A stretch of 64,000 bases of DNA from the NCBI GenBank assembly GCA_963704165.1, contig CAVPHD010000004.1, positions 64,001-128,000 on the forward strand, given 5' to 3'. The translations under genes and the position numbers were made by a program. Positions 4,820-35,679 of the stretch are shown here, piece by piece; the stretch's first letter is position 1; each line of letters starts with the position of its first letter. Source of the stretch: an uncultured delta proteobacterium. GTDB taxonomy: Bacteria; Myxococcota_A; UBA9160; SZUA-336. The notes under the pieces were generated by a model. It was not told the origin of the DNA. It saw only the letters and a list, made by a program, of their open reading frames with translations, and did not search any database.

Positions 4820-7800
4820 CTAGAGCACGCACCCTTGGGTGAGGGCGGGGCCGACGCCCGCGAGCGCGCGGCGAAGCACCGTGGCATCGGCGATGTCGCA
4901 GTTCGCAGCGACGTTGCCGTTCGCCCCGCTGACGTTGCACTTCGCCAGCGCCGCCGGCGTGTGGATGCCCGCGAGCCAGGCGCGCATGCTCGTGACGTCG
5001 GCGCTCGTATCGACGCCGTCCGCCGTGACGTCGCCGCACTGCGACGCGTCGCGAATGCCGTCGGGCTGCGAGCCGTCACCCACGGCGCCGCGGTCGATGC
5101 CGAGTCGCTCGCCGGATCCCGGCGGCACGCAGGTGTACGTCAGCTCCTGGCCGGCCGTTCCGGCGAGCAGACGCAGATTCGCGTCGCTGATCGTCGGGGC
5201 GCCGCCCACGTCCGGCGTGAAGACGGACGGCGAGCTCATCCACCAGCCGCGCGGCGCGCCGGCGATCCGTCCCTTGACGACCAGGTCGCACTCCTTGTTT
5301 CCGGGGCGATCCGGATCGGCGTAGTTCGTTCCCGCGCGAGTGACCAGGAGGTTCAAGCGCGTGATGACGGCGGCATCCCCTGCGTTCGCCGCGGTGAGCG
5401 TGACCTGCTGACCGACGACGGGCGCGATGTCGGAGTCGAACGCGAACATGAACTGCGAGACCTGGTTTCGCTGCGCGTCGCCACCGGGAACTGGAACACG
5501 CTCGTCGGGACGTTCGCGCCGAGAAACGTCATCACGGTGTCGATCGTGCCGTCGTGCAGGTAGCCGAAGCCGCGAATCTGCGGTGCGTTCGGATCGGCAG
5601 GCGTGGCGGCGTTCGCGAACCCGAACATGCCGACCTTCTGATACCCGTTGCGCAGGTGCGCGACCTTGAAGTGCTGCGTCTCGTTCTCGAAGGTCGAGAG
5701 TCCGGCGCTGCCGAAGAAACCGGCCGACGGGTCCAGCGTGTGGCAGCCGTTGCAATCCTTGAGCGTGTCGGAGATCGGTCCCGGCGCGGTGGGGGTGCCG
5801 AAGAACGTGGCGCCGGCGGACTGCTCGGCCGTCAGTGAGCGATCGAGCGCTCGGATCGGATTTGGCGGCAGCTGCACCTGCAGGATGAAGTTCGTGAACG
5901 CGAGCATGTCCTGCGTCGCGATCTGCGCCTGCCGACCCAGCAGGCCCTCGAACGCCGGATTGAAGGCCATGAAGGCGAGTGTCTCGTCGAGCGCGCCCGG
6001 CGAGCCGTCGTACCTGTACGGGTTCTGCGTGGTGCCGCCCGAACGATCGCCGCGCCAGTGCATCGGCCCGCCGTGATCCATGCCGCGAAGCGTCTGCGTC
6101 GTCATCGGGCCCTTGAGCGGGTGGAAGTCGAGATTTCCCTCGACGACGCTGCCGGGATTGAGGAAGTTCAGGGCCGGACCGGCGAGTCCGAAATTCTGGA
6201 GCGGCGAATTGAGCTTCACGAACGGGTTGAAGTTGTTCGCGCGCGCGCCGGCCGGATCGCCGAGGTCCCAGGCCAGGCTGTCGAAGTCACCGAAGATGTG
6301 GCAGCTCGCGCAGGACGCCTCGCCGTTCGAGGACGAGAAGCGCGCGTCGTAGAAGAAGCGCCGGCCCTCGGTGATGGTCGTGGTCTCGGGGCTGTGGATC
6401 GGCACGTGTGCGATCTCGGTGCGCAGGACCGTGTCGACGATCGAGATCGCGTTGTCGAAGCGCGTCAGTACGTAGAGCCGGCCGCGGGGCTCGTCGAGCG
6501 CGACCCCGCCCGGTCCGCCGGCCGAGAGCTCGACGTGGTCCGCGGCATTCGCCGCGAACGCACCCGGCGCGCCGGGCGCGAGCGCGAGCGCTGCGGTATC
6601 GACGATGCCGATCTTCTGCGACCCGAACGCCGCGACGTACAGCGTCGCGCCGTCGCTGGTGATCGCCATGTCGGTCGGAATCGCGAGGCTCGCGTCGTTC
6701 ACGCTCTGCGGCGGGTTCAGGTTCGAGTAGTCGATCTGCGTGTTCAGTCGCCGCTGCTGCGCGATGCCACCGCTGATCAGCGAGATCTGCGCGCGGTGCA
6801 GCTCGCCGCGCAGCGTCGTCGGTCCCGATCCCTCGAAGCGATCCATGTTGTTCGCCTCGGTGTTCGAGACGTAGATCGTTCCGTCGAGCGGGTGCACCAC
6901 CATGTTGAAGAGCACGGTTCCGACCGTGGTGACGCTGCTCGTGATCGCGGTCTGATCGAGCACCGACGCGTCGGCGTCGATCACGAAGACGTCCTGGTCG
7001 GGAAGGCTGAAGCGGACGACCCCGTTGTGATCCGCGCCGTTGACGTCGCGCCAGGTCGTCGGGCCGACCTGCTTCAGCATCACGCCGACCTGCGGAGCGG
7101 GCAGGCCGCTCACCGTCGGCAGCGGCGCCGGCGTGGGCAGCAAGCCCTCGGGCACCGCCGTCGTCTGGTTTCCCGAATGGTGGACCGCTGCGTACACCGA
7201 GAGGCCGTCGGGGCTCGTCGCCAGCGCGCGCGGCGTGTCGCCGAAGGCATTCAGGATCGCGATCTCGTCGCCGCCGAGGCTCGTGCCGGGGTTCGTCGCG
7301 TCGAAGACCCAGACGTCGGCACGGCCGACGCCCGGCGTCAGCAGCTGCGGGTCGCCCGGCCGGTTCTGCCCGCGGTGCGCGGCGGTGATGAAAGCGCGAT
7401 TCCGGCCTTCGCCCGCGAAGACGATGTCGCGCGGCTCGTCGCCGACGTGCAGCGTGCGCACGACGCGAAGTGACGCGACATCGACGATCGAGACGCTGTC
7501 GGAGAGGTGGTTCACGACCCAGACTTCGCCGGCCGTGCGCTCGGCGACCGCGACCGGATCGACACCGACCGGGACCGAGCCCGAATGGACCAGACCCGCG
7601 GCCGAGACGTCGAAGATCTCGAGGCGGCCGTCGGGGATGTTGCAGACGAAGAGCTGGGTGCCGTCCGCAGAGAGGGCGACGGGCCGGACCGGTCCGCTCT
7701 CGAAGAGCGTGTAGTTGCCCTGTGCAAACGCGGGCCCGGAAACAGCAATCAGCGTAAGCGCCAGCGCGGAAAACGCGCGTAGGAGGCCCAGTGGACTCAT
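4820..7800 (-). CDS. Secreted YVTN-type beta-propeller / diheme cytochrome c (peroxidase-like) protein with C-terminal dockerin-like module (frameshift near 5485)
   Basis: Signal peptide; propeller repeats (VPVGVDPVAVA, LHVGDEPRDIVF); CASCH and CNGCH; PMHWRGDR, FKVAHLRN, GYLHDG; C-terminal CGDVTADG motif. Confidence 0.85.
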
Positions 7801-7899
7801 TTCCCTTCCCCTTCCGAGGCCGTGGTGACCGATGGCCATCCTAACCCACGAGGTTCGATTAGGGGGGAAAGACCTCCGCAGCGAAATCCGCGTCGCCGC

Positions 7900-16617: not shown

Positions 16618-17199
16618 TCAGTCCGACACGAGATCCGCGATCAGCGACGCGCGTGAGGCGCCCGTGAGCTCGGCCGACGCGCGGTAGTTCGGATGCTCGA
16701 CGCGCAGCCGCGCGGAGGTCGCGGGATCGCAGAAGCTGCACGCGAGCTCGGGGCCGAGCGGGAAGCGCACGTACTGCACGGCGGAGATGCGATCCGCCTC
16801 GAACTGCTTGGCGTCGAAGGTCGCGCGCACGCTCTTCCCCGCCACGTCGAGGAAGACGTGCTCGTCGATGCCGACGAGCCGCTGGAGCTCGGACTTGATC
16901 TGCTGCGTCTCGGGGATCTCGATCATCAGCGTCGCCGAGAGCTCGTTCGCTCCGGGCACGAGCTCGTTGTACACCGCGATCTCGTCGAGGATCTTCTCTT
17001 CCTTCACGGCGCGCTCGGCCCGGAGCATCTCCTGGATCTGGAACAGGACGGTGTCGCGGTTCTCGAAGATGAACGTGAGCCGGTCACCGACGGCGACGCG
17101 GCGCGGGCGCTTCAGCTCGATCGTCCGCGTCAGGAACGCCTCGCGGATGCGCTCGTAGCCGGTCAGGTCGAGAACCTCGTCGCGAAGAACGCCTCTCAT
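16618..17199 (-). CDS. DUF3501 family protein
   Basis: [32 protein letters not shown]; overlaps the upstream Fe-S oxidoreductase by 4 bp. Confidence 0.85.
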
Positions 17200-18455
17200 T
17201 TCAGATCTCCAATGCCGTAGGCCTCGTGCAGCAACACGATCGGGTGTACGGCCTCCTTGCCGGTGCGTTCGCGAATGCGCAGCGCGGAGAGCGGGCAATC
17301 GGTGGCCACGCGCTCGGCTTCGGCGCCTTCGATCTCGAGCACGAGCTTTCCGGCGACCCTCTGGCTCTGCTCCCACCAGCGCGCCTTCATGCCCCAGGTG
17401 CCGTCGACGCCGGAGCAGGCGTCGATCATGCGGACGTCGTCGGAGACCAGTCCGAGCAGCTGCATCGAGCGGAAGCCGATGTTCTGCGCCTTCAGGTGAC
17501 AGGGCAGGTGGTACGCGATTCGGCCGAGCCGCTTCGGGAACTCGCGCACGAGCTTCTTCTCGGCCGCGAGGTTGAACAGGAACTCGCCGAGATCCTGCGT
17601 CGCATTCGCGACCGCCCGCGCATCGTCGGTACCGAGCAGCTCGGGGTATTCGTTCTTCAGCTGGTAGGAGCAGGTCGGGCCCGGGACGACGATCGGCACG
17701 CCTTCGCGAACCCGCGCGATCAGGCCCGCGACGACCTTCGCGGCGTTCTTCTTCGCGCTCTCGAGGTCGCCGCCGTGAAGGAACGGAGCGCCGCAGCACG
17801 CCGCGTAACCGCCCTCGACCGCGATGCCGTTGTGCTCGAGCACCTCGAGCGTCGCACGCGCGGTCTTCGCTTCGCTGTACTCGACGAAGCAGGTGGTGAA
17901 GAGGATCGCCCGCCCGTTCTCGCCCGACACGGTCCGGTGTCCCTGCAGATCCTTCGAGAAAGGCCGGGACTCGTAGGTCGGCATGATCCAGCGCCGGTCG
18001 ATTCCCGTCCCCTTCTCCATCAGGAGTCGAACCGCGCGGTTCTTGAACGCGGCATTGGTCAGCGAAGCGGTGAGACACGACGCCTTGCCCATCAGATCCT
18101 GCTGCGAGCCGATGCGTTCGGCGAGCGGGATCCCCTCCTCGCGAGCCTGAACGATCTTCGCGCGCGACATCAGCTTCGGGAAGTCCACCGCCCACTCGTG
18201 GGGCGGGTGATAGGGGCAGTGGTTGTAACAGAGCTTGCACTGGAAACAGAGATCGATGACCTCGCGGATCTCGGTCTTGGACAGCCTCGAGGCCTCGAGC
18301 TCGTGGGAATCGATCGCGTCGAAGAGCGACGGGAACGACGGGCAGAGCGGCAGGCAGCGCCGGCAGTCGTGACACTTCTCGAAGACGCGGACGAGCTCGG
18401 CGTCGAGCGCGTCGCGTTGCAGATACTCGCTGTCGTGGAGGCTCGCGTTCTTCAT
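17196..18455 (-). CDS. Rubrerythrin-associated Fe-S oxidoreductase (GlpC/HdrD-like)
   Basis: [11 protein letters not shown] and [12 protein letters not shown] 4Fe-4S motifs; CCG domain; YHLPCH, CSG, TDCP. Confidence 0.9.
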
Positions 18456-18484
18456 GGCGCTCCCGCGTGGCCGGATGTGGGGCG

Positions 18485-18517
18485 GACGGGGTGGGCGCCC
18501 TCGCGCTCCACCCCGTC
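18485..18517. other. Intergenic GC-rich stem-loop between rbr and the Fe-S oxidoreductase gene
   Basis: GACGGGGTGG (18485-18494) pairs perfectly with CCACCCCGTC (18508-18517); no U-tract. Confidence 0.55.
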
Positions 18518-18532
18518 GTGCTCATTTCGAGA

Positions 18533-18958
<426 letters not shown>

Positions 18959-19417
18959 TCAGTTCTCCTTCGTGACCCGGTTACGGGAAGAGGCCGCCGC
19001 GTTCGAGCCGTGCAACTCGCACGCCTCGCAGAGGCCGTAGAAGTCGATGCGGATCCTGCGCGCCGTGCGGCCGCGCGCGCGGCGCAGCTTGCGCGCGAGC
19101 GCGGGCGGCGCCTGCAGGTGGAGATCGTCGATCGCACCGCAGGCGTCGCAGATGAAGTGGTGGTGGGGCCTGGGATTCCCGTCGTAGCGCAAGCCGCCAC
19201 CCGCGCACGGGACCTCGTCGATCTGCCCCTCCGAGACGAGCACCTCGAGGTTCCGGTAGACGGTGCCGAGCGAGAGGTTCGGCAGCTCGCGCACCAGCGC
19301 CTCGTGCGTCTGTGACGCGGTCGGATGTGACTCGTTCCCGCGCAGCCACTCGAGGATGCGGGCGCGCTGCTTCGTCTGGTGGCGGCGCTTCGCGTTCTCG
19401 GGGGGGCTCGAGGTCAC
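18959..19417 (-). CDS. Fur family transcriptional regulator, PerR-like
   Basis: [35 protein letters not shown]; heads the rbr operon. Confidence 0.9.
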
Positions 19418-19424
19418 GAACCGC

Positions 19425-19453
19425 AGGATACCCGCGGCTCCCTCGGGGTGCAA
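19425..19453 (-). promoter_or_regulatory. Putative sigma70 promoter of the perR-like/rbr operon
   Basis: Minus strand TTGCAC-17 nt-TATCCT, 7 nt before the GTG at 19417. Confidence 0.6.
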
Positions 19454-24085: not shown

Positions 24086-24523
24086 ATGGCGAAGCGAAGC
24101 GAGACTGACGAGAGCGCGGAGGAGCAGCTTTCGCGCTGCGGGCTTCGAGCGACGCAACAGCGTGTCGCCGTGCTGCGCCTGCTCCGTGCGGATCGCGGGC
24201 ACCCGTCCGCGATCGACGTGCACGGCCGCCTCGTCTCGCGTCACCCGAATCTGAGTCAGAAGACCGTCTACGAGATCCTCGACACGCTCGTCGACGTCGA
24301 GTTGGCGCGTCGTGTCACACAGATCAGCGGGCCGGCGCGGTACGAGGTGCGGCTGGAACGCCACGATCACGCCTGGTGTCGGAGCTGCGGCCGGCTCTTC
24401 GACGTCGCCAGCAGCGCGAAGGACGCGATCCGCGCGCGCGCGGATCTGCCCGAGGGCTTCCGGCTCGAGGGCATCCAGGTCACCCTCGAAGGGCGCTGTG
24501 CCCGCTGTGCCCGCGTCCCTTGA
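24086..24523 (+). CDS. Fur family transcriptional regulator
   Basis: GLRATQQR, HPSA, SQKTVYEIL, HDHAWCRSCG, GRCARC. Confidence 0.9.
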   Translation: MAKRSETDESAEEQLSRCGLRATQQRVAVLRLLRADRGHPSAIDVHGRLVSRHPNLSQKTVYEILDTLVDVELARRVTQISGPARYEVRLERHDHAWCRSCGRLFDVASSAKDAIRARADLPEGFRLEGIQVTLEGRCARCARVP

Positions 24524-24537
24524 GACGATTTTTCTTA

Positions 24538-24552
24538 TTGACAATGATTGTC
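24538..24552 (+). promoter_or_regulatory. Fur-box-like palindrome overlapping a consensus -35 element
   Basis: TTGACA (24538-24543) overlaps GACAAT-G-ATTGTC (24540-24552) in an AT-rich patch directly after the Fur-family gene. Confidence 0.65.
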
Positions 24553-24569
24553 GTCTGAAATAGAGAGAG

Positions 24570-25673
24570 ATGGTGAGATCAAAGCTGTTCGCGTTCACGA
24601 TGTCACTCATCTTCGCATTCGTTGCGGTTGCCGCGGGCGTGGACATGCCGGTCCCCGAAGGCGTGATGGCTCCCGAAGTCCCTGCGGACAATCCCCTCAC
24701 CGCCGCGAAGGTGGAGCTCGGAAAGAAGCTCTACTTCGATCGCCGGCTCTCGAAGGACGACACGATCTCGTGTGCGACCTGTCACGATCCGCGCGCGGGC
24801 TTTGCCGAGCACAAGCGGGTCTCCGACGGAGTCGCCGGAGGAAAGGGCGTTCGCAACGCCCCGACGGCGCTGAACGCGGCGTTCTTCCGCGAGCAGTTCT
24901 GGGACGGACGCGCGCCGACGCTCGAAGCGCAGGCGGTGCTGCCGATCATCAATCCCGTCGAGATGGCGATGCCGGACCATCCCGCGGTCGAAGCGAAGCT
25001 CGCGGGCCTCGCGGACTACCCGCCGCTCTTCCAGAAGGCCTTCGGAGATCCGAAAGTGACGATCGTTCGCGTCGGCCAGGCGCTGGCGAGCTTCGAGCGC
25101 ACGCTGCTCTCGCTCGACGCGCCGATCGACCGGTTCCTCGCGGGGGACGCGAAGGCGATCTCGGAATCCGCGAAGCGCGGCTGGGCGCTCTACAACGGCA
25201 AGGCGCGCTGCGTGACGTGCCACGCCCACGCGTCGGTGTTTCCGCTCTTCACCGACGAGAAGTACCACAACCTCGGCGTGGCCTCGAAGCCGAAGCTCTT
25301 CGTCGAGCTCGCGCGAAGGGTCGAGGCTCGGCCGGACGAGCTCGAGACGCTCGCCGGGACGCCCGGCATCGAGGAGCTCGGGCGTTTCGCCGTCACCCGG
25401 CAGCGTCAGGATCTCGGCGCATTCAAGACGCCGCACCTGCGCAACATCGCGCTCACCGCGCCGTACATGCACGACGGCAGCGAAGCGACGCTCGAAGACG
25501 TGATCGTGTTCTACGACATCGGCGGCAATCCGAATCCCTGGCTCGACGGCGGCATGCGCCCCCTCGAGCTCACCGAGCAGGAGAAGGCCGATCTGGTCGC
25601 CCTGCTCGAGACGTTCACGAGCACCGATCTCTCGCGCTTCGACGACCTCGTGAAGCTCATGCCCCAACCGTAA
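24570..25673 (+). CDS. Diheme cytochrome c peroxidase superfamily protein, MauG-like
   Basis: Signal peptide; CATCH and CVTCH; QFWDGRA; FKTPHLRN, APYMHDG, VIVFYDIGG. Alternative start ATG at 24600. Confidence 0.92.
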   Translation: MVRSKLFAFTMSLIFAFVAVAAGVDMPVPEGVMAPEVPADNPLTAAKVELGKKLYFDRRLSKDDTISCATCHDPRAGFAEHKRVSDGVAGGKGVRNAPTALNAAFFREQFWDGRAPTLEAQAVLPIINPVEMAMPDHPAVEAKLAGLADYPPLFQKAFGDPKVTIVRVGQALASFERTLLSLDAPIDRFLAGDAKAISESAKRGWALYNGKARCVTCHAHASVFPLFTDEKYHNLGVASKPKLFVELARRVEARPDELETLAGTPGIEELGRFAVTRQRQDLGAFKTPHLRNIALTAPYMHDGSEATLEDVIVFYDIGGNPNPWLDGGMRPLELTEQEKADLVALLETFTSTDLSRFDDLVKLMPQP

Positions 25674-25684
25674 GGAGCCACGTC

Positions 25685-26816
25685 ATGCCGAAACACCTGA
25701 CTCCGAGAGAGCTCGAACGCGAGCTGCGCGAACGTTCACCCGAGTCCGAGCGGCTGATCCGCTCGCTCACCAACTGCGACCGGCGGCACTTCCTGAAGGT
25801 GTCGGCGAAGTTCGCCGCGATGGCCGCGGCGGCGAGCGTGATCCAGCCGCACGCGTTCCAGCTGGTGAACGTCGCGTACGCGGCCGACGTGCCTGGCACT
25901 TCGCCCGATGTCGCGTTCCGCTTCGCGTACATCTCCGATTCGCACCTGTTCTCGCGCGGCATGACGCACCGATTCGCGAAGGCGACCCTGAAGGCCGTTC
26001 AGGACGTGAACGCCCTCGATCCGCAGCCGGACTTCGTCCTCTACGGCGGAGACCTCGCCCAGCTCGGCCGCGCCGACGAGCTCGCGCTCGGTCAGCAGAT
26101 CCTGAAGGAGCTGAAGGCGCCGGTGAAGATGATGGTCGGCGAGCACGACTGGTACCTCGACATGGGCCAGAAGTGGAACGAGATGTTCGGCCCCGACCAC
26201 TACTCGTTCGACCACAAGGGCGTGCACTTCGTCGCGCTGAACAGCGTCATCGAGAAGGACTTCTGGACCGCGAAGGGGTACTCGCCCGAGGAGCGCATGA
26301 ACATCGTCGCCGGACTCGACGACGGCCGACAGAGCCGGTTCGAGGTCGGCGAAGCGCAGCGCGACTGGCTGAAGCAGGATCTGGCGAAGGTCGACAAGAA
26401 CACGCCGGTCGTCGTCTTCTCACACTCGCCGCTCTACAAGTACTACGAGCCCTGGAACTTCTGGACCGACGACGCCGAGCAGGTGCAGGCGCTGCTCTTC
26501 CCGTTCAAGAGCGTGACGGTGATCCACGGACACACGCATCAGCTGCTGACGAACCGGATCAGGAACATCAGCTTCCACGGCCTGCTCTCGACGGCTTGGC
26601 CGTGGCCGTACGCGCCGACGGGCCTGCCCGCGCTGACGCGTGCAGATGGATCGCCCGGACCCGTTCAACCAGTTCGACGGCTGCGGGGACGGCAGCATCG
26701 ACGTGCTGAAGAGCGGGCAGGCGAACCTCGACTACAACCTCTGGGATCGCAACCCGCGCAGCGTGACCCACGCCGAGATCGTCGCTGGCATCAAGGGCGG
26801 CGGTCCATCCTACTAG
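25685..26816 (+). CDS. Tat-exported metallophosphoesterase-fold protein (frameshift near 26638)
   Basis: DRRHFLK twin-arginine motif; ISDSH, GGDL, VGEHDW, FSHSP, HGHTH; C-terminus VQMDRPDPFNQFDGCG in a shifted frame ending at TAG 26816. Confidence 0.85.
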
Positions 26817-26830
26817 ACCGGAAGGAGTCG

Positions 26831-27520
26831 ATGATGAGATCTCTGCGAGCGTTGGGAGTGACTGCCGCCGCCGTCGTCGCCGCCGCGGGCCTCCATGCCG
26901 GGGTGCAGCGCGAGGCGTTGGCCGAGGAGTGGGCGTCGCGCACCGTGTACGCGTGCGACCAGCGCAAGGTGGTCATTGTCGAGGGCGTTCGCTCCGACGA
27001 GAGGCTCTCGCCCGAGAAGGCGCAGCAGGTCGCGGACCTGCTGACCGATCTGATGCGCTACTGCAACGCCGAGGTGACCGCGCGGATCGCGCGGAACGAG
27101 CTCATCACGCTCAGCATCAACGGGCTTCCCTTCCAGCACTACGTGCCGGGAAGCGAGCCGCCGATCGAGCTCGTTCGCGGGAAGTCGGACTACGGTGACC
27201 GCGACCGCGCGATCTGGAAGGCGGAGCTCGACAGGCTCGTGAAGGAGGGCGACCGGCTCTTCCACAGCGACGAGATCGGCACGAACGGCATCGCCTGCGC
27301 GATGTGCCACCCGCACGCTTCGAACACGCACCCGGAGACCTATCCGAAGTTCCAGATCGAGATGAAGCAGGTGGCGCTGCTTCGGGACATGGTCAACTGG
27401 TGCATCGAGAACCCGCTCGAGGGTCCGAAGCTCGCGGCCGACGACCCGAAGATGCGCGCGCTCGAGGCGTACATCCTCTCGCAGCGGAAGGGCGTCGCGA
27501 TGGACGCTGGCAAGCACTAG
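26831..27520 (+). CDS. Exported monoheme c-type cytochrome, SoxA/TsdA-like heme domain
   Basis: AAGGAG RBS, signal peptide, CAMCH, YPKF...LRDMVNWCIENPLEG...MRALEAYI. Confidence 0.8.
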   Translation: MMRSLRALGVTAAAVVAAAGLHAGVQREALAEEWASRTVYACDQRKVVIVEGVRSDERLSPEKAQQVADLLTDLMRYCNAEVTARIARNELITLSINGLPFQHYVPGSEPPIELVRGKSDYGDRDRAIWKAELDRLVKEGDRLFHSDEIGTNGIACAMCHPHASNTHPETYPKFQIEMKQVALLRDMVNWCIENPLEGPKLAADDPKMRALEAYILSQRKGVAMDAGKH

Positions 27521-27523
27521 CGG

Positions 27524-28669
27524 CTAGGGCGCGCGAAGGAGCTCGTCCAGCGTTCGGTGGAAGTGCTGCCCGCCGCCCTCGTTGCGGCCGAAGAGCACGT
27601 GACTCCGCGCGCCCGTTTGGAGCGCGCGCTGCTGGCGCAGGCCGGTCGCGTAGTCCTCTTCGCGAACGACGTAGCCGAGGAGCTCGAACATCTTCTCGGC
27701 GGCCGCGCGTTCGGCGTCGTCGGGCGGCTTCTCCATCACGAAGGACTGGATCGTCGTCGATTCGAGCGGCGTCTCGCCGGGAAAGAGCTGGGAGATCAGC
27801 ACCGCGCGCGCGCCGACGTCGAAGGTCGCGATCGAGACGTGCGGGAAGATCGTCCACACCCCGCCGATCAGCTCCGATGTCGGCCACGCCTCTTCGGGAC
27901 GGTCCTCGAGCGCGAGCAGCGCCGGATTCGGGAACGTCACGCGTTGGTGCGGGCCGAACGCGTCGTAGAGCGCGCGGTTCGGGAGCGATCCGCCGATCGT
28001 GTTCTTGTGCAGGACGGGCAGGTGATAGAAGTCGAGATACCCGTCGTAGGCGATCTTCCAGTTCGGTCCGGCGACGCTGCGCCGACTGACGAGGTGCCAG
28101 CTCTCGAATCCGAAGAGCCCGAGCAGCTCGCCGTACCCACACAGGAAAGCGTCGATGTCGAGCGTCGAGGCGGGGTCGAGCGCGACCCAGACCAGGCCCG
28201 CGCGCTCCGCGACCGGAAGCTGCACCAATCCGTGACAGGCGCGATCGACGTTCCCGAAGTCGCGCTCCGATGGGATCCCGACCAGCGCACCGTCCTCGTC
28301 GTAGGTCCAGGCGTGGTACGGACAGACGAATCGCCGCGCGCGACCCGGCCCGTCGGGCGCGATCTGGGCACCGCGATGAGAGCAGCTGTTGACGAACGCC
28401 CGCAATGCGCCGTCGGAGCCGCGCACGATCAGCACCGGAACGCCGACCGCGTCGAGTGCCTTGTACGAACCCGCACCTTCGAGCTCGCACGAGAGCGCGA
28501 GCACGAGGGGCACGCGCTTCCAGACACGGTCGATCTCGAGCCGGAAGCGCGCGGGATCGACGTAGTGCGCACCGGGGACTCGGAGCACGTCCGGCGCCTG
28601 GTCGATCGTGCCGGCCTTCACGTGGGCGATGTTCCGACACGCCATTCGCACGAGCTCGGACCGGCTCAC
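27524..28669 (-). CDS. Rieske ring-hydroxylating oxygenase alpha subunit
   Basis: CSHRG...CPYHAW Rieske motif; NWK...DFYHLPVLH; EEDY. Confidence 0.92.
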   Translation of the reverse strand: MSRSELVRMACRNIAHVKAGTIDQAPDVLRVPGAHYVDPARFRLEIDRVWKRVPLVLALSCELEGAGSYKALDAVGVPVLIVRGSDGALRAFVNSCSHRGAQIAPDGPGRARRFVCPYHAWTYDEDGALVGIPSERDFGNVDRACHGLVQLPVAERAGLVWVALDPASTLDIDAFLCGYGELLGLFGFESWHLVSRRSVAGPNWKIAYDGYLDFYHLPVLHKNTIGGSLPNRALYDAFGPHQRVTFPNPALLALEDRPEEAWPTSELIGGVWTIFPHVSIATFDVGARAVLISQLFPGETPLESTTIQSFVMEKPPDDAERAAAEKMFELLGYVVREEDYATGLRQQRALQTGARSHVLFGRNEGGGQHFHRTLDELLRAP

Positions 28670-28682
28670 GTCGTCTTCCTTC

Positions 28683-30067
28683 TCAGTCTTGGATCCACTT
28701 CTCGAGCAGCGTGTGGAAGTGGCGGATCTTCGACTCCTGGTAGTTGGCGAGCGTCACTCCGGGCTTCTGCATCGCCTTCAAGCCGCGCTGGACCTTCGGC
28801 AGGTTGAAGACGTCCTGGTTGAAGATGCGCGCGAGCGAGCCGAGCTCCGGCGCGTCGCACCAGTCGTCGTCGACGCCGAGCCAGTGGATCTTCGCGGCGG
28901 GCGGTTTCTCGCTGCCCTCGGGCCAGGGCGCGAGATACATGCACTCCATGATCGACATCTCGTGGTCGTCGCCGTACGGGCCGAAAGCGATAGACGATGC
29001 GATTGAACGCGCCCCAGGGATGGAAGTTCGGGAACACCGTGTAGTAGAAGCTGTCGACGAGTTCGGAGTCGCAGAGCCCGTCGGCGTACGTCTTGCCGCA
29101 CACGCCGCGCAGCATCGCGCGCGTTCCCTCGGCCGCGACCTGCGCGCGCGGTCATGCCGGGCGGGATCACGAGCGACGGCTCCTCGTCGAGCCGGCGATC
29201 GACCATCGCGTCGAGCATCTCCTGCTCGGTCGGCTGCCAGTCGAGATGCGGGCTCGGCGTGCCGTTCGGCGAGATCGCGCGCGAGAAATTCTCGTAGATG
29301 TCGTACTGCGAGTTCGCGTCGCCGATGCCGGGCAGGATCTGGGGATGCGTGCCGATCACGTGGTAGGCCTCGCTGAACGCCTCCTGCACGACCTTCCAGT
29401 TCGCCGCCAGGATCTTCGCCACGTGCGCCTGCTTGTAGCGCTTCTCGAGCGGCCAGCGCGCGAACTGACGGTCGAGTCCGACCAGATACCTCTCGAGCGG
29501 CTCGCACTCGGGATCCATGTTGATGAAGACGAATCCGCCCCAGGTGCCGACCTTGCACTCGGGCAGCGCGAACTTCGCCTTCTCGACGTGGGGGAAGTCC
29601 CAGTCGGCGGGAATCGTCTCGAGCTTTCCGTCGAGGCTCCAGGTGAAGCCGTGAAAGGGACAGCGGATCTGCCGGCAGTTGCCGTCGCGCTCGCGCAGGA
29701 TGCGCCCGCGGTGCAGGCAGACGTTGTGGTAGGCCTTGATCACCGTCGGCGCGCTTCGAATCACCAGGATCGACAGGTTCGCGATCTCGTACACGACGTG
29801 ATCGCCGACCTCGGGGATGTCTTCTTCGCGGCAGGCCATCTGCCAGACGCGCTTCCAGACCTTCTCGACTTCGATTTCGTGAAACGCGCGCGACGTGTAG
29901 CGCTCGATCGGGATGTCGTCCGAGCCGAGATCTCGCGGCGACGTTTCGCGAAGGATCTCGGGCACGGGTTTGGTGTCGGTGTCGAGAAGCTGTTGATACG
30001 AGAGTCCGCGCGATTTCGGCAGCGTCGGATCGGCCCGGCCGGGCAAGCGCGTTTCGGGCGATGCCAC
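28683..30067 (-). CDS. Rieske ring-hydroxylating oxygenase alpha subunit (frameshifts near 29145 and 28980)
   Basis: CLHRG...CPFHGF; NWK...EAYHVIGTH; YTVFPNFHPW and QDVFNLPKVQRG lie in successive frames. Confidence 0.88.
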
Positions 30068-30069
30068 GC

Positions 30070-30303
30070 TCAATCCCCCGTGCCCGGCGCGGCGCGGCCG
30101 GGGATCGGACGTCGTCCGTCGGGCAGCCGCGCGCCCGCGACCCAACCGATGACGTGCGGATCGGCTTCCTTCAGCTCGCCGTGGTGCCAGCTCGTGTCGG
30201 CGTTGAACCAGCCGGTCGTTCCATCCTTCGTCTCGACGCGGACGAGCCCGTCGGGCTCGAGATCGTAGATCGCACCCGTGACGGCGTGTCGTAGCTTCGG
30301 CAT
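30070..30303 (-). CDS. Small hypothetical protein (77 aa) leading the Rieske operon
   Basis: MPKLRHAVTGAIYDLEPDGLVRVE...; GAGGAG upstream; stop 2 nt before the Rieske GTG. Confidence 0.7.
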   Translation of the reverse strand: MPKLRHAVTGAIYDLEPDGLVRVETKDGTTGWFNADTSWHHGELKEADPHVIGWVAGARLPDGRRPIPGRAAPGTGD

Positions 30304-31520: not shown

Positions 31521-32741
31521 GTGATCCAGAGGGCGCTCGCTTTCGCGCTGGCCGCGATTCTCTTTCCCCAGGCCAGCGCGCGTGCCGACTTCGTGCCGGA
31601 AGTGGTTGGCCAGGTGACGACGCTGCCGGCGCCGGGTCCGCACTGGATCTTCGTGTCGGACATGCTGCTGCGTCGCGCGGCGCTGCTCGATGCCGACACC
31701 GGCACGTTCCTCGGCATGCTCTCGTCCAATCTCGGTCCGATCGCACCGCTGGTGACGCCGACCGGCGGCGCCATCTACCTTCCCGAGACCTATTACAGCC
31801 GCGGCAGCCGGGGCGAACGCACGGACGTGCTGACGATCTACGATCCGAAGACGCTCGCACCGACGGGCGAAGTCGTGATCCCGCCCAAGCGCGCCGACAT
31901 CGTGCACGGCGCCGGGCTCTCCGGACTGCTCGACGACGGGCGCTTCGCCGTCGTCTTCAACCTGACGCCGGCGACGTCCGTCTCCGTCATCGACACCACG
32001 GAGCGTCGCTTCGCGGGCGAGATCGAGGTGGCTGGGTGCAGCCTCGTGTACGCCGCCGGAGATCGGCGCCTGGCCATGCTGTGTGCGGACGGGACGCTCC
32101 TGCTGATCACGCTCGACGAGCGTGGCGCCGAAGCCCGGCGCACGCGCAGCGCGGTCTTCTTCGATCCCGAGAAGGATCCGGTGATCGAGAAGCCGGTGCG
32201 GCGCGGCGCGAGCCTGTTCTTCGTCTCGTTCCAGGGCTACGTGCACGAGGCGGATCTCTCCGGTGATTCACCGCGCTTCGTCGAGCCGTGGTCGCTCTTC
32301 AGCGCTTCGGAACGCAATACGGGCTGGCAATTCGGCGGCTCGCAGCCGCTCGCGCTGCACGAAGCGACGGGGCGGCTCTACGCGCTGGTTCACCAGGGCG
32401 GACCGGACGAACACAAGGTGGCCGGCACGGAGATCGCCGTCTACGACGCAAGCCGACACGAGCGCGTGCAGACGATCGAGATCGGGAATCTCGTCGGCGC
32501 GTTTCTCGCGTCGCGCATGGAGCTCGCCGAGGGTGGCTGGGGGGCGTGGTTGCTCGAGACGATCGTGCCGAACGCCGGCGCCGACCGGATCGCGGTCACG
32601 CAGGATCCGGCGCCGCGACTCATTCTGGTGTCGGCCGACAGCGGGACGGTGGGCGTGCACGATGCCCTGTCGGGAGCGTTCCTGCGCAACATCAACGACG
32701 TCGGGCTCTTCCCCGGCGTGATCTCGGCGCCGTGGCGCTGA
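31521..32741 (+). CDS. mauB: TTQ amine dehydrogenase large (beta-propeller) subunit
   Basis: Signal peptide; ETYYSRGSRGERTDV, VFNLTPATSVSVID, GCSLVY, LCADG. Confidence 0.9.
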   Translation: MIQRALAFALAAILFPQASARADFVPEVVGQVTTLPAPGPHWIFVSDMLLRRAALLDADTGTFLGMLSSNLGPIAPLVTPTGGAIYLPETYYSRGSRGERTDVLTIYDPKTLAPTGEVVIPPKRADIVHGAGLSGLLDDGRFAVVFNLTPATSVSVIDTTERRFAGEIEVAGCSLVYAAGDRRLAMLCADGTLLLITLDERGAEARRTRSAVFFDPEKDPVIEKPVRRGASLFFVSFQGYVHEADLSGDSPRFVEPWSLFSASERNTGWQFGGSQPLALHEATGRLYALVHQGGPDEHKVAGTEIAVYDASRHERVQTIEIGNLVGAFLASRMELAEGGWGAWLLETIVPNAGADRIAVTQDPAPRLILVSADSGTVGVHDALSGAFLRNINDVGLFPGVISAPWR

Positions 32742-33268
32742 CCGTCGATCCCGCGCTCGCGCTCGCCGCGCGCCTGGGTCTCGCGCTGCTCTTCGCGAGC
32801 GCCGCGTGGCACAAGCTCCGCGACCTCGAGGTCTTCCGCACGGCGCTCGAAGGCTATCGGCTCGTTCCACGGCCGGCGGAAGGGGTTGCGGTCTTCGCGC
32901 TGATCGCGTGCGAGCTCGCGATCGCGGGAGCACTCGTGCGGTCGTCTCTCGGTGGGCTTCCGGCCGCATTGCTTCTCACGCTCTACACCGCCGCGATCGC
33001 TCTGAGTCTCGCGCGCGGTCTGCGCGAGATCGATTGCGGCTGCTTCGGGCCGGCCGCACGCCAGCCGCTCTCGGCCGGCCTGGTCGTCCGCAACCTGGGG
33101 ATGATCGCCCTGGCCCTCGTCTGCACGCTGCCCGCCGGGCCGCGCACGCTGATCTGGCTCGACGTCGTCTCGATCGGCGCCGCCGTCGGGCTCGGCGCAA
33201 TCCTGTACGGCACCGCGAACACCTTGCTCGCGAACGCGCCGCGCCTGCGCGCGCTGCGGGGCGCTTGA
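32732..33268 (+). CDS. mauE: Amine dehydrogenase accessory membrane protein MauE
   Basis: AAWHKLRD, RGLREIDCGCFG, VRN; position between mauB and mauD. Confidence 0.9.
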   Translation: MALTVDPALALAARLGLALLFASAAWHKLRDLEVFRTALEGYRLVPRPAEGVAVFALIACELAIAGALVRSSLGGLPAALLLTLYTAAIALSLARGLREIDCGCFGPAARQPLSAGLVVRNLGMIALALVCTLPAGPRTLIWLDVVSIGAAVGLGAILYGTANTLLANAPRLRALRGA

Positions 33269-33873
33269 TGGAACAGGCGCTCTTGATCTCGAACGTGCTG
33301 CTCTGGATCGCGGTGCTCGCGCTCGCCGCGCTCGTCTTCGCGCTCGTCCGCCAGATCGGCATCCTGTACGAGCGCGTCGCACCGGCCGGTGCGCTGATGC
33401 TCGCAGGTGGCCCGAAGGTGGGCGAGGCGGCGCCGCATTTCCACCTCGACGACGTTCTCGGCCGCACGGTCTCGCTCGGCGGCGATGATCCCGAGCGACG
33501 CTCGACGCTGCTTTTCTTCGTCTCGCCGACCTGCCCGGTCTGCAAGACGCTCCTGCCCGTGGCGAAGTCGCTCGCTTCTCGCGAGTCGGATCACGTGCGG
33601 CTCGTGTTCGCCAGCGATGGGCACGCGGACGATCACGAAGCGTTCGTGCGCAAGCACGGGCTCGACGCCTGGCCCTACGTCGTCTCGACCGAGCTCGGGT
33701 TGGCGCACCAGGTCGGCAAGCTCCCGCACGCGGTTCTCTGGGACTCGCGCGGGATCGTGCGCGCGAAGGGCCTCGTGAACTCGCGCGAGCATCTGGAGAG
33801 CCTGTTCGAGGCGATGGATCGCGGTGTGGCCTCGATCCAGGAATACCTTTCGAGATCGGGAGGATCGCGATGA
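33268..33873 (+). CDS. mauD: Amine dehydrogenase accessory thioredoxin-like protein MauD
   Basis: LVRQIGILYERVAPAGAL, SPTCPVCK, KGLVNSREHLESL. Confidence 0.93.
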   Translation: MEQALLISNVLLWIAVLALAALVFALVRQIGILYERVAPAGALMLAGGPKVGEAAPHFHLDDVLGRTVSLGGDDPERRSTLLFFVSPTCPVCKTLLPVAKSLASRESDHVRLVFASDGHADDHEAFVRKHGLDAWPYVVSTELGLAHQVGKLPHAVLWDSRGIVRAKGLVNSREHLESLFEAMDRGVASIQEYLSRSGGSR

Positions 33874-34418
33874 GCTGGCTCGACTCGACACTCGAGCGTT
33901 CCGCGCGCAGGGCCGCACGCAGCATCTCGCGGCGGAGCTTCCTCGCGCGACTGGGCTCGGCGCTGGTCGGTGGAGCGGCGCTGCCGCTGCTTCCAGTCTC
34001 GCGGGCGCACGCGGACTCCGGCGAGTCTGCGCGCGTGCCCGCACCGACCGACGCGGGCATCACGGGAGCGCTCGGAGATCCGGCGAGCTGCGAGTACTGG
34101 CGGCACTGCGCGATCGACGGCTTTCTCTGCAGTTGCTGCGGCGGAAGCCAGACCTCGTGCCCGCCGGGTACGCAGATGTCGCCCGTGACCTGGATCGGCA
34201 CGTGTCGGAACCCGGCCGACGGCAAGGACTACGTGATCAGCTACAACGACTGTTGTGGGAAGGACTACTGCGGCCGCTGCATCTGCAACCGCAACGAGGG
34301 CGACAAGCCCGCCTACATCACGCCGCGATCGAACGACATCAATTGGTGTCTCGCGGCCGAGAGCACCGTCTACAACTGCTCGACCGCGATCGTGATCGGA
34401 ATGGCGACGGAGCGCTGA
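33870..34418 (+). CDS. mauA: TTQ amine dehydrogenase small subunit (AADH/MADH light chain)
   Basis: Tat motif SRRSFL; CEYWRHCAIDGFLCSCCGG; both TTQ Trp residues (TWIGTC, DINWC); DCCGK. Confidence 0.95.
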   Translation: MSWLDSTLERSARRAARSISRRSFLARLGSALVGGAALPLLPVSRAHADSGESARVPAPTDAGITGALGDPASCEYWRHCAIDGFLCSCCGGSQTSCPPGTQMSPVTWIGTCRNPADGKDYVISYNDCCGKDYCGRCICNRNEGDKPAYITPRSNDINWCLAAESTVYNCSTAIVIGMATER

Positions 34419-34425
34419 CGCCGAC

Positions 34426-35679
34426 TCACAGGTGGTAGCCTTCCTCGCCGTGGACGGCGATGTCGAGTCCCCGACGCTCGTCGGTTTCCCCGACACGCAG
34501 GCCGGTCAGCGCCATGACCACGCGCAGGATCACCCATGTGATCGCGACCGTGTAGACGACCGCGAAGCTGGCGACGCCGAGCTGAATGCCGAGCTGTCGG
34601 CCGATGGCGAGCCCGACCTGGTTCCCACCGAACACGTCCGAGGCGAAGATCGCGACCAGCACGGTGCCGAGGAAGCCACCGACGCCGTGCACGCCGAAGA
34701 CGTCGAGTGAGTCGTCGTAGCCGAAGCGCCGCTTGACCGCGGTCGACGCGTACCAGCAGACCGCGCCGGACGCCGAGCCGATCGCGAGTGCACCGACCGG
34801 ACCGACGAAGCCCGAGGCCGGAGTCACCGCCGCGAGCCCCGCGACCGCGCCCGTCGCGAGTCCGAGCACCGACGGGCGCCCGTAGCGCACCCACTCGATC
34901 GCCATCCAGACCAGTGCCGCCGCCGATGCGGAGACGTGCGTCGCGACGAGCGCCGTCGCCGCGGTGCCGTTCGCGGCGAGCGCGCTGCCGGCGTTGAATC
35001 CGAACCAGCCCACCCAGAGCATGCCCGTTCCCGTCAGGGTCATCGTCAAGTTGTGGGGAGGCATGGCGGTGCGCGGGTAGCCGTTGCGTGGGCCGATCAC
35101 GATGCACGCGACCAGCGCCGCGATTCCCGCGGTGATGTGCACGACGATACCGCCCGCGAAGTCGAAGACGCCGATGTCGGCGAAGAGCGCGCCCTGACCA
35201 CCCCAGACCATGTGACAGATCGGGAGGTACACGAGGATCAGCCAGGCACCGCTGAAGAGCAGGAGAGCCGCGAAGTTCATCCGTTCGGCGAACGCGCCGA
35301 CGATCAGCGCGGGTGTGATGATCGCGAAGGTGAGCTGATAGGCGAAGAAGAGCGGTTCCGGAATCGTGCCCCAGAGCGTTTCGGCGCCGATCCCGGCCAG
35401 GAACGCCTTCGACAGCCCTCCGACGAACGAGTGCAGGCCGATCGCGCCCTTCTCGTACCCGGTCGGCTCGAACGCGACGCTGTAGCCGAAGGCGAGCCAG
35501 AGGATCGTCACCAACGCGGTGATCGCGAAGCACTGCATCAGCACCGAGAGCACGTTCTGCGTGCGGACCAGCCCGCCGTAGAAGAGCGCGAGCCCCGGCA
35601 GGGTCATGAAGAGCACCAGGGCCGTGGACGTAAGGATCCACGCGGTGCTTCCGGTATCGAGCGCAGTCAGGCTTTCCAT
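34426..35679 (-). CDS. amtB: Ammonium transporter Amt
   Basis: PGLALFYGG, FAIITPALI, DFAGG.VVH, GWFGFNAGS, DDSLDVFGVHG. Confidence 0.97.
   Translation of the reverse strand: MESLTALDTGSTAWILTSTALVLFMTLPGLALFYGGLVRTQNVLSVLMQCFAITALVTILWLAFGYSVAFEPTGYEKGAIGLHSFVGGLSKAFLAGIGAETLWGTIPEPLFFAYQLTFAIITPALIVGAFAERMNFAALLLFSGAWLILVYLPICHMVWGGQGALFADIGVFDFAGGIVVHITAGIAALVACIVIGPRNGYPRTAMPPHNLTMTLTGTGMLWVGWFGFNAGSALAANGTAATALVATHVSASAAALVWMAIEWVRYGRPSVLGLATGAVAGLAAVTPASGFVGPVGALAIGSASGAVCWYASTAVKRRFGYDDSLDVFGVHGVGGFLGTVLVAIFASDVFGGNQVGLAIGRQLGIQLGVASFAVVYTVAITWVILRVVMALTGLRVGETDERRGLDIAVHGEEGYHL

Follow-up and report, generated by a model that had tools for sequence, protein, structure and literature searches.

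A 64,000-nucleotide stretch of contig CAVPHD010000004.1 from an uncultured delta proteobacterium (the window) carries an operon in which a MauG-type dihaem enzyme (gene ccp), a metallophosphoesterase-fold protein (mpe, product MPE) and a small c-type cytochrome (cyt) are encoded in succession behind a regulator of the Fur family (fur). The operon is real, widespread and uncharacterised, and it fails the membership tests of the Sox, Mau, MbnHP and BthA systems. Its sequence features support a conserved periplasmic redox system of three components with a Fur/PerR-type repressor of its own, and we propose, with a probability of roughly one half, that electrons would pass in the periplasm from a substrate to MPE, from there to the cytochrome and the dihaem enzyme, and finally to H2O2. 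Residue numbers are those of the window, whose genome (G000) is 84% complete.

24086..24523, plus strand: Fur-family regulator, PerR-like, likely the local repressor of the operon (PF01475, residues, synteny in the closest relatives)
24538..24554, plus strand: likely operator, TTGACAAT-N-ATTGTCNN (genome-unique site, matrix scan, promoter overlap)
24570..25673, plus strand: MauG-type dihaem enzyme, ccp (PF03150, alignment of Y315 with MauG 294)
25685..26816, plus strand: metallophosphoesterase-fold dimetal protein, putatively exported by twin-arginine translocation (Tat), mpe, with a one-base frameshift near 26639 (PF00149, conservation, model of the homologue at locus L003)
26638..26640, plus strand: extra base breaking the mpe frame, likely an assembly error (gapped alignment to homologues)
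26831..27520, plus strand: monohaem c-type cytochrome of the SoxA/TsdA fold with a variable N-terminal domain, cyt (PF21342, Cys191, fold matches)

The genes are co-oriented with gaps of 46, 11 and 14 nucleotides, and matches to FUR (PF01475), CCP_MauG (PF03150), Metallophos (PF00149) and SoxA-TsdA_cyt-c (PF21342) bear out the layout and the family calls of a first-pass annotation; no NCBIfam equivalog cut-off is attained by any of the four products. The export signals assigned there to three of the proteins also find support in hydrophobic N-termini of the ccp and cyt products, which are putatively exported, and in the twin-Arg motif DRRHFLK of MPE, where, out of 84 homologues, 83 keep R33 and 82 keep R34. 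A point that the annotation did not report is that mpe is not intact here. Gapped alignment against the homologues at loci L111, L112, L042 and L174 places an extra base near 26638-26640, leaving the last 58 codons in another frame, and the open reading frame from 25685 consequently runs through cyt as a 611-residue chimera. This frameshift is very probably an assembly error: the frame at the break point is uninterrupted in 80 of 80 genome homologues, the ratio of nonsynonymous to synonymous substitution rates (dN/dS) against L111 is 0.15 ahead of the break and 0.20 beyond it, indicating purifying selection on both parts, and the assembly is indel-prone, with frame breaks in 13 of the 128 genes that have an orthologue in ~240 kb of the same-genus genome G263. 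If real, the frameshift would take away the fold's final strands and a portion of the interface predicted below. A genuine MPE-cytochrome fusion was rejected as a product of the frameshift only, the 120 best longer cytochrome homologues all being 190-247 residues in length.

Conservation and distribution of the operon

The MPE query yielded at least 396 confirmed relatives among at least 599 pattern matches, and the best 80, a set leaning to close relatives, were kept as genome loci. The synteny that the first-pass annotation had set as a check is nearly complete: ccp lies upstream of mpe in 80/80 loci and cyt downstream in 78/80, both exceptions being at contig ends. When metagenome loci are anchored on the cytochrome instead, all 55 with more than 700 nucleotides of upstream sequence have the MPE gene ahead of it, and 32 of the 33 with more than 2000 have ccp there too; the remaining loci were too short. 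A Fur-family gene is present at only 16 of the 80 genome loci and a gene for an extracytoplasmic function (ECF) sigma factor at 14. MPE and the cytochrome are the fixed core, and Fur is accessory. The earlier proposal of a metal- or peroxide-regulated three-component periplasmic system is supported as regards a conserved system with a dedicated Fur/PerR-type repressor.

Carriers span Myxococcota, Binatota, Acidobacteriota and Pseudomonadota, as judged from record titles, and the non-pathogenic ones in culture include Corallococcus, Myxococcus, Cystobacter and Methylocystis, with rhizobia for the oxidase-linked form described below. Occurrence of the trio is patchy: in the window's class, 18 genomes out of 121 carry it. 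At least 17 of the 301 genomes of its phylum have a match at E < 1e-60 in a profile search that scored seven candidates per genome, so that misses there do not equal absences; ten of the matching genomes were opened, in partial overlap with the 80 loci, and all ten had the trio. The phylum of genome G301 gave three clear matches in 401 genomes, and one Methylocystis plasmid has a 55% MPE homologue without an adjacent cytochrome. In genome G585 (L203:1789-8658) a second dihaem gene adjoins the trio back-to-back, and genes for particulate methane/ammonia monooxygenase lie alongside the trio. The earlier statement that no characterised pathway has this gene set agrees with our finding no study of the trio in the literature, where coverage of subscription papers was mostly wanting; the ESM Atlas gave generic Metallophos clusters only.

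Regulator and operator

The regulator carries H39, E87, H93, H95 and D106 together with CxxC motifs at 98-101 and 138-141, and its best NCBIfam matches are PerR models, all under their cut-offs. Compared with the PerR signature residues D85, D104 and N61 (PMC12754779; this and the other papers are cited from the portions available), D104 is kept as D106, and Glu occupies the positions of D85 (E87) and N61 (E63). By these residues the protein is PerR-like, with a putative operator of its own, and not a canonical PerR. A Fur orthologue stands immediately upstream of the operon in the closest relatives.

The AT-rich palindrome reported earlier between the regulator and ccp has the core GACAAT-G-ATTGTC (24540-24552), which matches once in the window against 0.04 expected. 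The full 17-bp palindrome, TTGACAAT-N-ATTGTCNN (24538-24554), overlaps the sigma70-like -10 element of a promoter-like match at 24520-24548 found by promoter scan, and is the sole site in the genome within three mismatches of the consensus. With an operator matrix built from six relatives only, the window site tops the genome at 24.4, the runner-up scoring 16.8; seven further loci with a Fur orthologue score 9.9-28.8 and three without one score -3 to -6. A perfect site occurs at L003 though no Fur gene is nearby. The palindrome is likely the operator of the local Fur-family repressor. The runner-up site (G000:C8:16318) is ~2 kb from a third Fur paralogue (C8:13887-14327). Five kilobases upstream of the operon (17196-19453, minus strand) are a second PerR-like gene and genes for rubrerythrin and an Fe-S/CCG oxidoreductase, and the operator of the trio was not found in that region.

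Other lineages have different PerR/Irr-like genes or an OxyR-like gene at the locus, or KatG, Dps, peroxiredoxin or rubrerythrin as neighbours, and because these neighbours are of PerR, OxyR, KatG and Dps type, induction of the operon by peroxide would be expected. The dihaem genes in the available part of a Myxococcus xanthus RNA-seq study of H2O2 stress (PMC12754779) are, by their table labels, apparently not those of this operon; the study also names oxyR-ccp and pexR-ccp pairs, which may or may not correspond to it.

MPE and its predicted complex with the cytochrome

MPE has the calcineurin-like fold and motifs (DxH, GD, H, GHxH), with D85, H87, D123, E153, H247, H283 and H285 as putative metal ligands. 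Motif III reads GEHD in 84/84 close homologues and 33/36 distant alignment rows, not GNHD as in GpdQ and Rv0805, and this replacement of a metal-binding Asn by Glu leads to a predicted 4-His/3-carboxylate site. Flavodiiron proteins have the same ligand count, built in another hydrolase fold. The intact homologue at L003, modelled at a predicted local distance difference test (pLDDT) of 92.8, is nearest in fold to GpdQ (Z 26.6, root mean square deviation 2.6 Å over 235 residues) and Rv0805 (Z 25.0, 3.1 Å over 243); SoxB ranks 24th (Z 14.3). Three tryptophans are invariant, W257 and the W305-P-W307 pair (a WxW motif), and W257 is found in 35/36 distant rows, which include cupredoxin- and Rieske-fused forms. 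The cysteine of MPE is not invariant, which argues against a role as sulfur carrier. Some distant MPEs carry a Rieske (P0087) or a cupredoxin/CuA (P0074, P0111) domain as a fusion, and others adjoin cupredoxins (Ralstonia, Mycobacteroides, G218). Around a distant MPE on a Burkholderia vietnamiensis plasmid (L256) are genes for chromate resistance, a rhodanese, an ABC transporter and cytochrome c assembly.

The cyt product has a single haem site (C156xxC159H160) and a predicted distal ligand, Cys191, which aligns with the Cys of TsdA and SoxA and is kept in 79/80 rows. Three-chain prediction of the L003 trio scored 0.64 (0.70, 0.64, 0.45), against 0.33 for the best control and 0.00 for the others; in calibration, 116 of the 157 solved pairs and 2 of the 215 mismatched ones attained this mark, a guide that is rough here, with own alignments and three chains. 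At least 71% of contacts are shared between runs, and the partner pLDDT is at least 90. All contacts listed are between MPE and the cytochrome, with the CxxCH loop and Cys191 predicted to pack against W257, W305, W307 and the metal-site loops. Replacing the dihaem enzyme lowered the score from 0.64 to 0.33 and left the MPE-cytochrome contacts unchanged. The model supports binding of the cytochrome to MPE. In this prediction, of a kind that the first-pass annotation had called for, no confident dihaem-MPE contact was named, an outcome that the method counts neither for nor against binding. No solved complex of the MPE-cytochrome kind was seen among the PDB hits, in which no formal search was made.

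The proposed electron chain

In the proposed chain, MPE would use its two-metal phosphoesterase fold to oxidize a small reductant instead of cutting phosphate esters; the Cys-ligated cytochrome would dock at the mouth of the active site and accept the electrons; and the MauG-type dihaem enzyme would use them to reduce H2O2 to water. This direction of flow is suggested because the operon encodes no membrane electron source and because the rhizobial core joins a cbb3-type oxidase, which reduces O2. A cupredoxin-like gene precedes the core, MPE then cytochrome, in Phyllobacterium, Rhizobium, S. fredii and genome G627, and the genes for subunits I and II of the cbb3 type come after it, together with assembly genes. 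G627, a single contig of 7.15 Mb, has no PF03150 match in its genome, and a core that lacks this gene and is joined to an oxidase implies that the dihaem enzyme is replaceable by another electron sink. One S. meliloti plasmid keeps the core, but there the genes of the oxidase are broken or out of place. As to the substrate, within this chain we would assign about 35% to reduced sulfur species, 30% to superoxide or Fe(II), 10% to a phosphite-like oxyanion and 25% to others.

Several observations weigh against this proposal. Among solved structures MPE is closest to hydrolases, and it retains the His that follows the motif-III residue, usually the general acid. Known Tyr-ligated dihaem proteins oxidize proteins and are not peroxidases fed by a cytochrome, although with an artificial donor BthA does turn over H2O2 (PMC6405878). 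Genes for SoxYZ and a flavocytochrome c sulfide dehydrogenase face the rhizobial oxidase-linked core. Peroxide-defence genes occur in 19/80 loci and soxY, soxZ or sulfide dehydrogenase genes in 0/80, a comparison biased by the choice of queries, the peroxide set having been taken from the same loci (self-hits counted) and the sulfur set from one rhizobial locus. No peroxide gene is nearby in 61/80 loci, and 14 have an ECF sigma gene instead. Finally, His/Cys haems are of low potential (PMC9562282), which limits the possible donors and would suit the reverse direction of flow.

A broader and more tentative proposal would make the GEHD clade the first branch with redox activity in the metallophosphoesterase superfamily. 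Its members would be carboxylate-enriched di-iron or di-manganese oxidases that pass single electrons from an inorganic substrate, such as superoxide, Fe(II) or a reduced sulfur species, through the Trp patch to interchangeable carriers (His/Cys cytochrome, cupredoxin or Rieske protein), ending at H2O2 via the dihaem enzyme as a true peroxidase or at O2 via cbb3, and the dihaem enzyme could be recruited anew as a maturase for the tryptophan tryptophylquinone (TTQ) cofactor.

The dihaem enzyme as electron sink or maturase

The ccp product has CxxCH motifs at 68-72 and 214-218. W111, Q121, P125 and E131 make up a putative peroxidatic pocket with inter-haem Trp, the +10/+20 spacing being that of BthA Ser257/Gln267/Glu277, and Trp111 is kept in 74/81 rows. 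The distal Tyr315, aligned with MauG 294 and kept in 80/81 rows, takes the place of Met in the Met/His high-potential haem of canonical bacterial cytochrome c peroxidase (PMC7567364). By these residues the enzyme is of the MauG (Tyr/His) type, yet it scores 248.9 bits against a cut-off of 443.85 for TIGR03791 (MauG) and 233.7 against 362.85 for TIGR04039 (MbnH). Two positions before the haem-2 CxxCH, where MauG has a surface relay Trp that we take to be Trp199, 48 of the 81 rows have Ala and 32 Gly.

The leading alternative, which we consider unlikely, is the maturation that the first-pass annotation had offered: the bis-Fe(IV) state formed by the dihaem enzyme with H2O2 would oxidize tryptophan of MPE (W305-P-W307 or W257) into a protein-derived cofactor, and the cytochrome would be the acceptor, as amicyanin is for methylamine dehydrogenase. 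The MauG-type residue set suits such a role, and the invariant WxW of MPE resembles the WxW of MbnP that becomes kynurenine (PMC11951088). Part of this reading, the MauG-type enzyme, has held up. The single-contig genome G627 speaks against maturation, since it combines MPE and cytochrome with no PF03150 gene, and its MPE retains W257, W305 and W307; W257 likewise persists in the distant cupredoxin- and Rieske-fused forms, and 80 of the 81 ccp rows have Ala or Gly at the relay position, although MbnH likewise has no Trp there.

A natural experiment on the side of maturation is found in G263. At its syntenic locus (L219:5611-9598) fur, operator, mpe and cyt are lost, and a ccp orthologue is kept ~64 nucleotides before mauB-E-D-A. 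This orthologue is 79% identical to the window ccp and falls within the trio clade as its sister, on a longer branch, with an SH-like approximate likelihood-ratio support (SH-aLRT) of 100 in a quick tree; its dN/dS of 0.22, next to 0.12-0.23 for its neighbours, indicates that it outlived its former partners under purifying selection. Of 67 near-invariant residues it has changed exactly three, R213 (to Leu), G327 (to Pro) and G328 (to Asn); among 81 trio homologues 63 change none and two change three. These residues, near haem 2, may form the docking site for the cytochrome. Retention of the gene, a single case, hints that a trio-type dihaem enzyme can mature TTQ, and the locus is possibly one where the enzyme was recruited for that task. 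The roles of electron sink and maturase are not mutually exclusive.

The window itself has a mauB-mauE-mauD-mauA cluster for a TTQ amine dehydrogenase (~31750-34418, plus strand) without mauG, followed by an ammonium transporter gene (34426-35640, minus strand); the cluster lies ~6 kb after ccp and is separate from the operon. Of the 121 genomes in the window's class, 80 have mauA and none attains the MauG cut-off. A general link between the trio and mauBEDA was rejected, mauA being found in 11 of 18 carriers versus 69 of 103 other genomes.

Sulfur chemistry, reverse flow and hydrolysis

The fold of the cytochrome is closest to TsdBA (Z 10.0), the N-terminal domain of SoxA (Z 9.7) and TsdA (Z 9.6), and in many records the protein is automatically labelled thiosulfate dehydrogenase. 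A minimal Sox-like cycle would follow if a sulfur oxyanion were joined oxidatively to Cys191 and sulfate then hydrolysed off by a SoxB-like MPE, with electrons passing to the dihaem enzyme or the oxidase. Besides the fold, the location of Cys191 inside the predicted interface agrees with this cycle, as do the sulfur genes flanking the rhizobial form, and the invariant K173 and R185 of the cytochrome and R96 and R204 of MPE could bind anions. The residues around Cys191 do not. TsdA Arg119, four residues before the Cys, is described as invariant in TsdA and SoxA in the available text of PMC4423706, and its counterpart is Met187 in 79/80 rows; Arg109 is replaced by Gln or Glu and Ser127 by Pro, all three being residues that bind the anion in TsdA. 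All of these substitutions match the N-terminal haem domain of SoxA (EQMINAC). That domain is non-catalytic. Of 34 carriers, 3 gave a SoxZ match, and of the 16 from the window's phylum at 90% completeness or above, none did. The absence of soxYZ from the window, as stated in the first-pass annotation, extends to its genome as far as that is complete, where neither soxZ nor soxB was matched anywhere. A 'TauE/SafE' label in the rhizobial operon was rejected as sulfur evidence, the gene being PF13386 (DsbD_2). With the distance of SoxB in fold, these results weaken the suggestion of a minimal Sox-like module, which we regard as improbable. The N-terminal domain of the cytochrome (window 26921-27200) has a nearly invariant Cys42, and a Cys78 in the window's subclade, and is missing from forms of ~135 residues (L097-L099); its best fold match, at Z 5.7, is not meaningful.

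Reverse flow, in which the low-potential cytochrome would feed MPE and MPE would be a di-iron terminal reductase of O2, NO or H2O2, is somewhat less probable still. Flavodiiron proteins are a precedent for the reuse of a hydrolase fold in a reductase, and the predicted 4-His/3-carboxylate site, the haem type and the peroxide-defence neighbours suit such an enzyme. At L016 the trio is followed by a gene (6727-7383) for a multihaem cytochrome of the QrcA/ActA (alternative-complex-III-like) type, through which the trio might connect with the quinone pool; this is seen at 1/80 loci. The difficulty is that the operon would have two sinks and no source, in the dihaem and oxidase forms alike. Least probable is that MPE hydrolyses phosphoesters in the periplasm in the ordinary way, with a haem-thiolate sensor of redox state or gas gating its active site and the dihaem enzyme setting the state of that sensor. 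This reading fits the GpdQ- and Rv0805-like fold, the canonical catalytic His and 6/7 metal ligands, and the predicted capping of the active site by the cytochrome, but leaves unexplained the dedicated cbb3-type oxidase with its assembly genes and the cupredoxin and Rieske fusions, and finds no recurrent phosphate or nucleotide genes in the neighbourhoods of the loci.

Neighbouring and related genes

Downstream of the operon, a second Rieske gene (27524-28669) is convergent with cyt, 3 nucleotides separating the stops, and a Rieske oxygenase alpha gene (28666-30145, minus strand) is split across two frames, likely by another assembly indel. Elsewhere in the window (5353-7839, minus strand) is a gene for an exported beta-propeller protein of 828 residues that has two CxxCH motifs and matches CCP_MauG weakly. 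SCO-like/dihaem fusions (L223-L226), whose SCO label was read from the N-terminal sequence, form a family apart that is common in the window's class.

Comparison with known systems

If the proposed chain is correct, a fold annotated as metallophosphoesterase and a cytochrome labelled thiosulfate dehydrogenase would together constitute a new periplasmic oxidoreductase, a MauG-type dihaem enzyme would have a physiological electron donor, a question pending for BthA-like enzymes, and peroxide defence or microaerobic respiration in soil and water bacteria would gain a new branch.

Among known dihaem systems, BthA/PhosA of Burkholderia, in which a Tyr/His CCP_MauG dihaem protein is encoded beside an exported putative phosphatase (PMC6405878), resembles the trio in pairing such an enzyme with an exported phosphatase-type partner. 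It differs in that BthA has Ser as the inter-haem residue where the trio has Trp111, belongs to the Burkholderia cluster IIIb and is a distant match (6nx0, E 1.6e-14), and in that PhosA is described as of the purple-acid-phosphatase type on the outer membrane, with no His/Cys cytochrome described in the available portion of that paper. The MauG/preMADH/amicyanin system shares with the trio the haem-pocket residues, the distal Tyr and the combination of a dihaem enzyme with a Trp-rich partner and a small carrier, whereas the trio ccp is under the TIGR03791 cut-off and its partner is a dimetal protein found also without any dihaem enzyme. MbnH is among the best PDB matches of ccp (E 1.5e-48) and the partners of both have WxW, but ccp is under the TIGR04039 cut-off, its adjoining partner is MPE and there is no copper-uptake context.

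The His/Cys cytochrome fold and a Tat-exported dimetal protein of the SoxB superfamily recall Sox and TsdA (PMC4423706, in the portion available), from which the trio departs in a cytochrome that has one haem and no catalytic Arg, without SoxX or TsdB, and in SoxZ being mostly not found; MPE is moreover GpdQ-like and not 5'-nucleotidase-like as SoxB is. GpdQ and Rv0805 themselves have GNHD where MPE has GEHD, and MPE adds aromatic loops and constant redox-protein neighbours. A further published mention is of the ECF206s2, ECF207 and ECF127 contexts, where a calcineurin-like phosphoesterase is listed beside cytochrome c, cupredoxin or Rieske genes (PMC7826278); it is in the available text a one-line note on context that assigns no function and mentions no dihaem enzyme.

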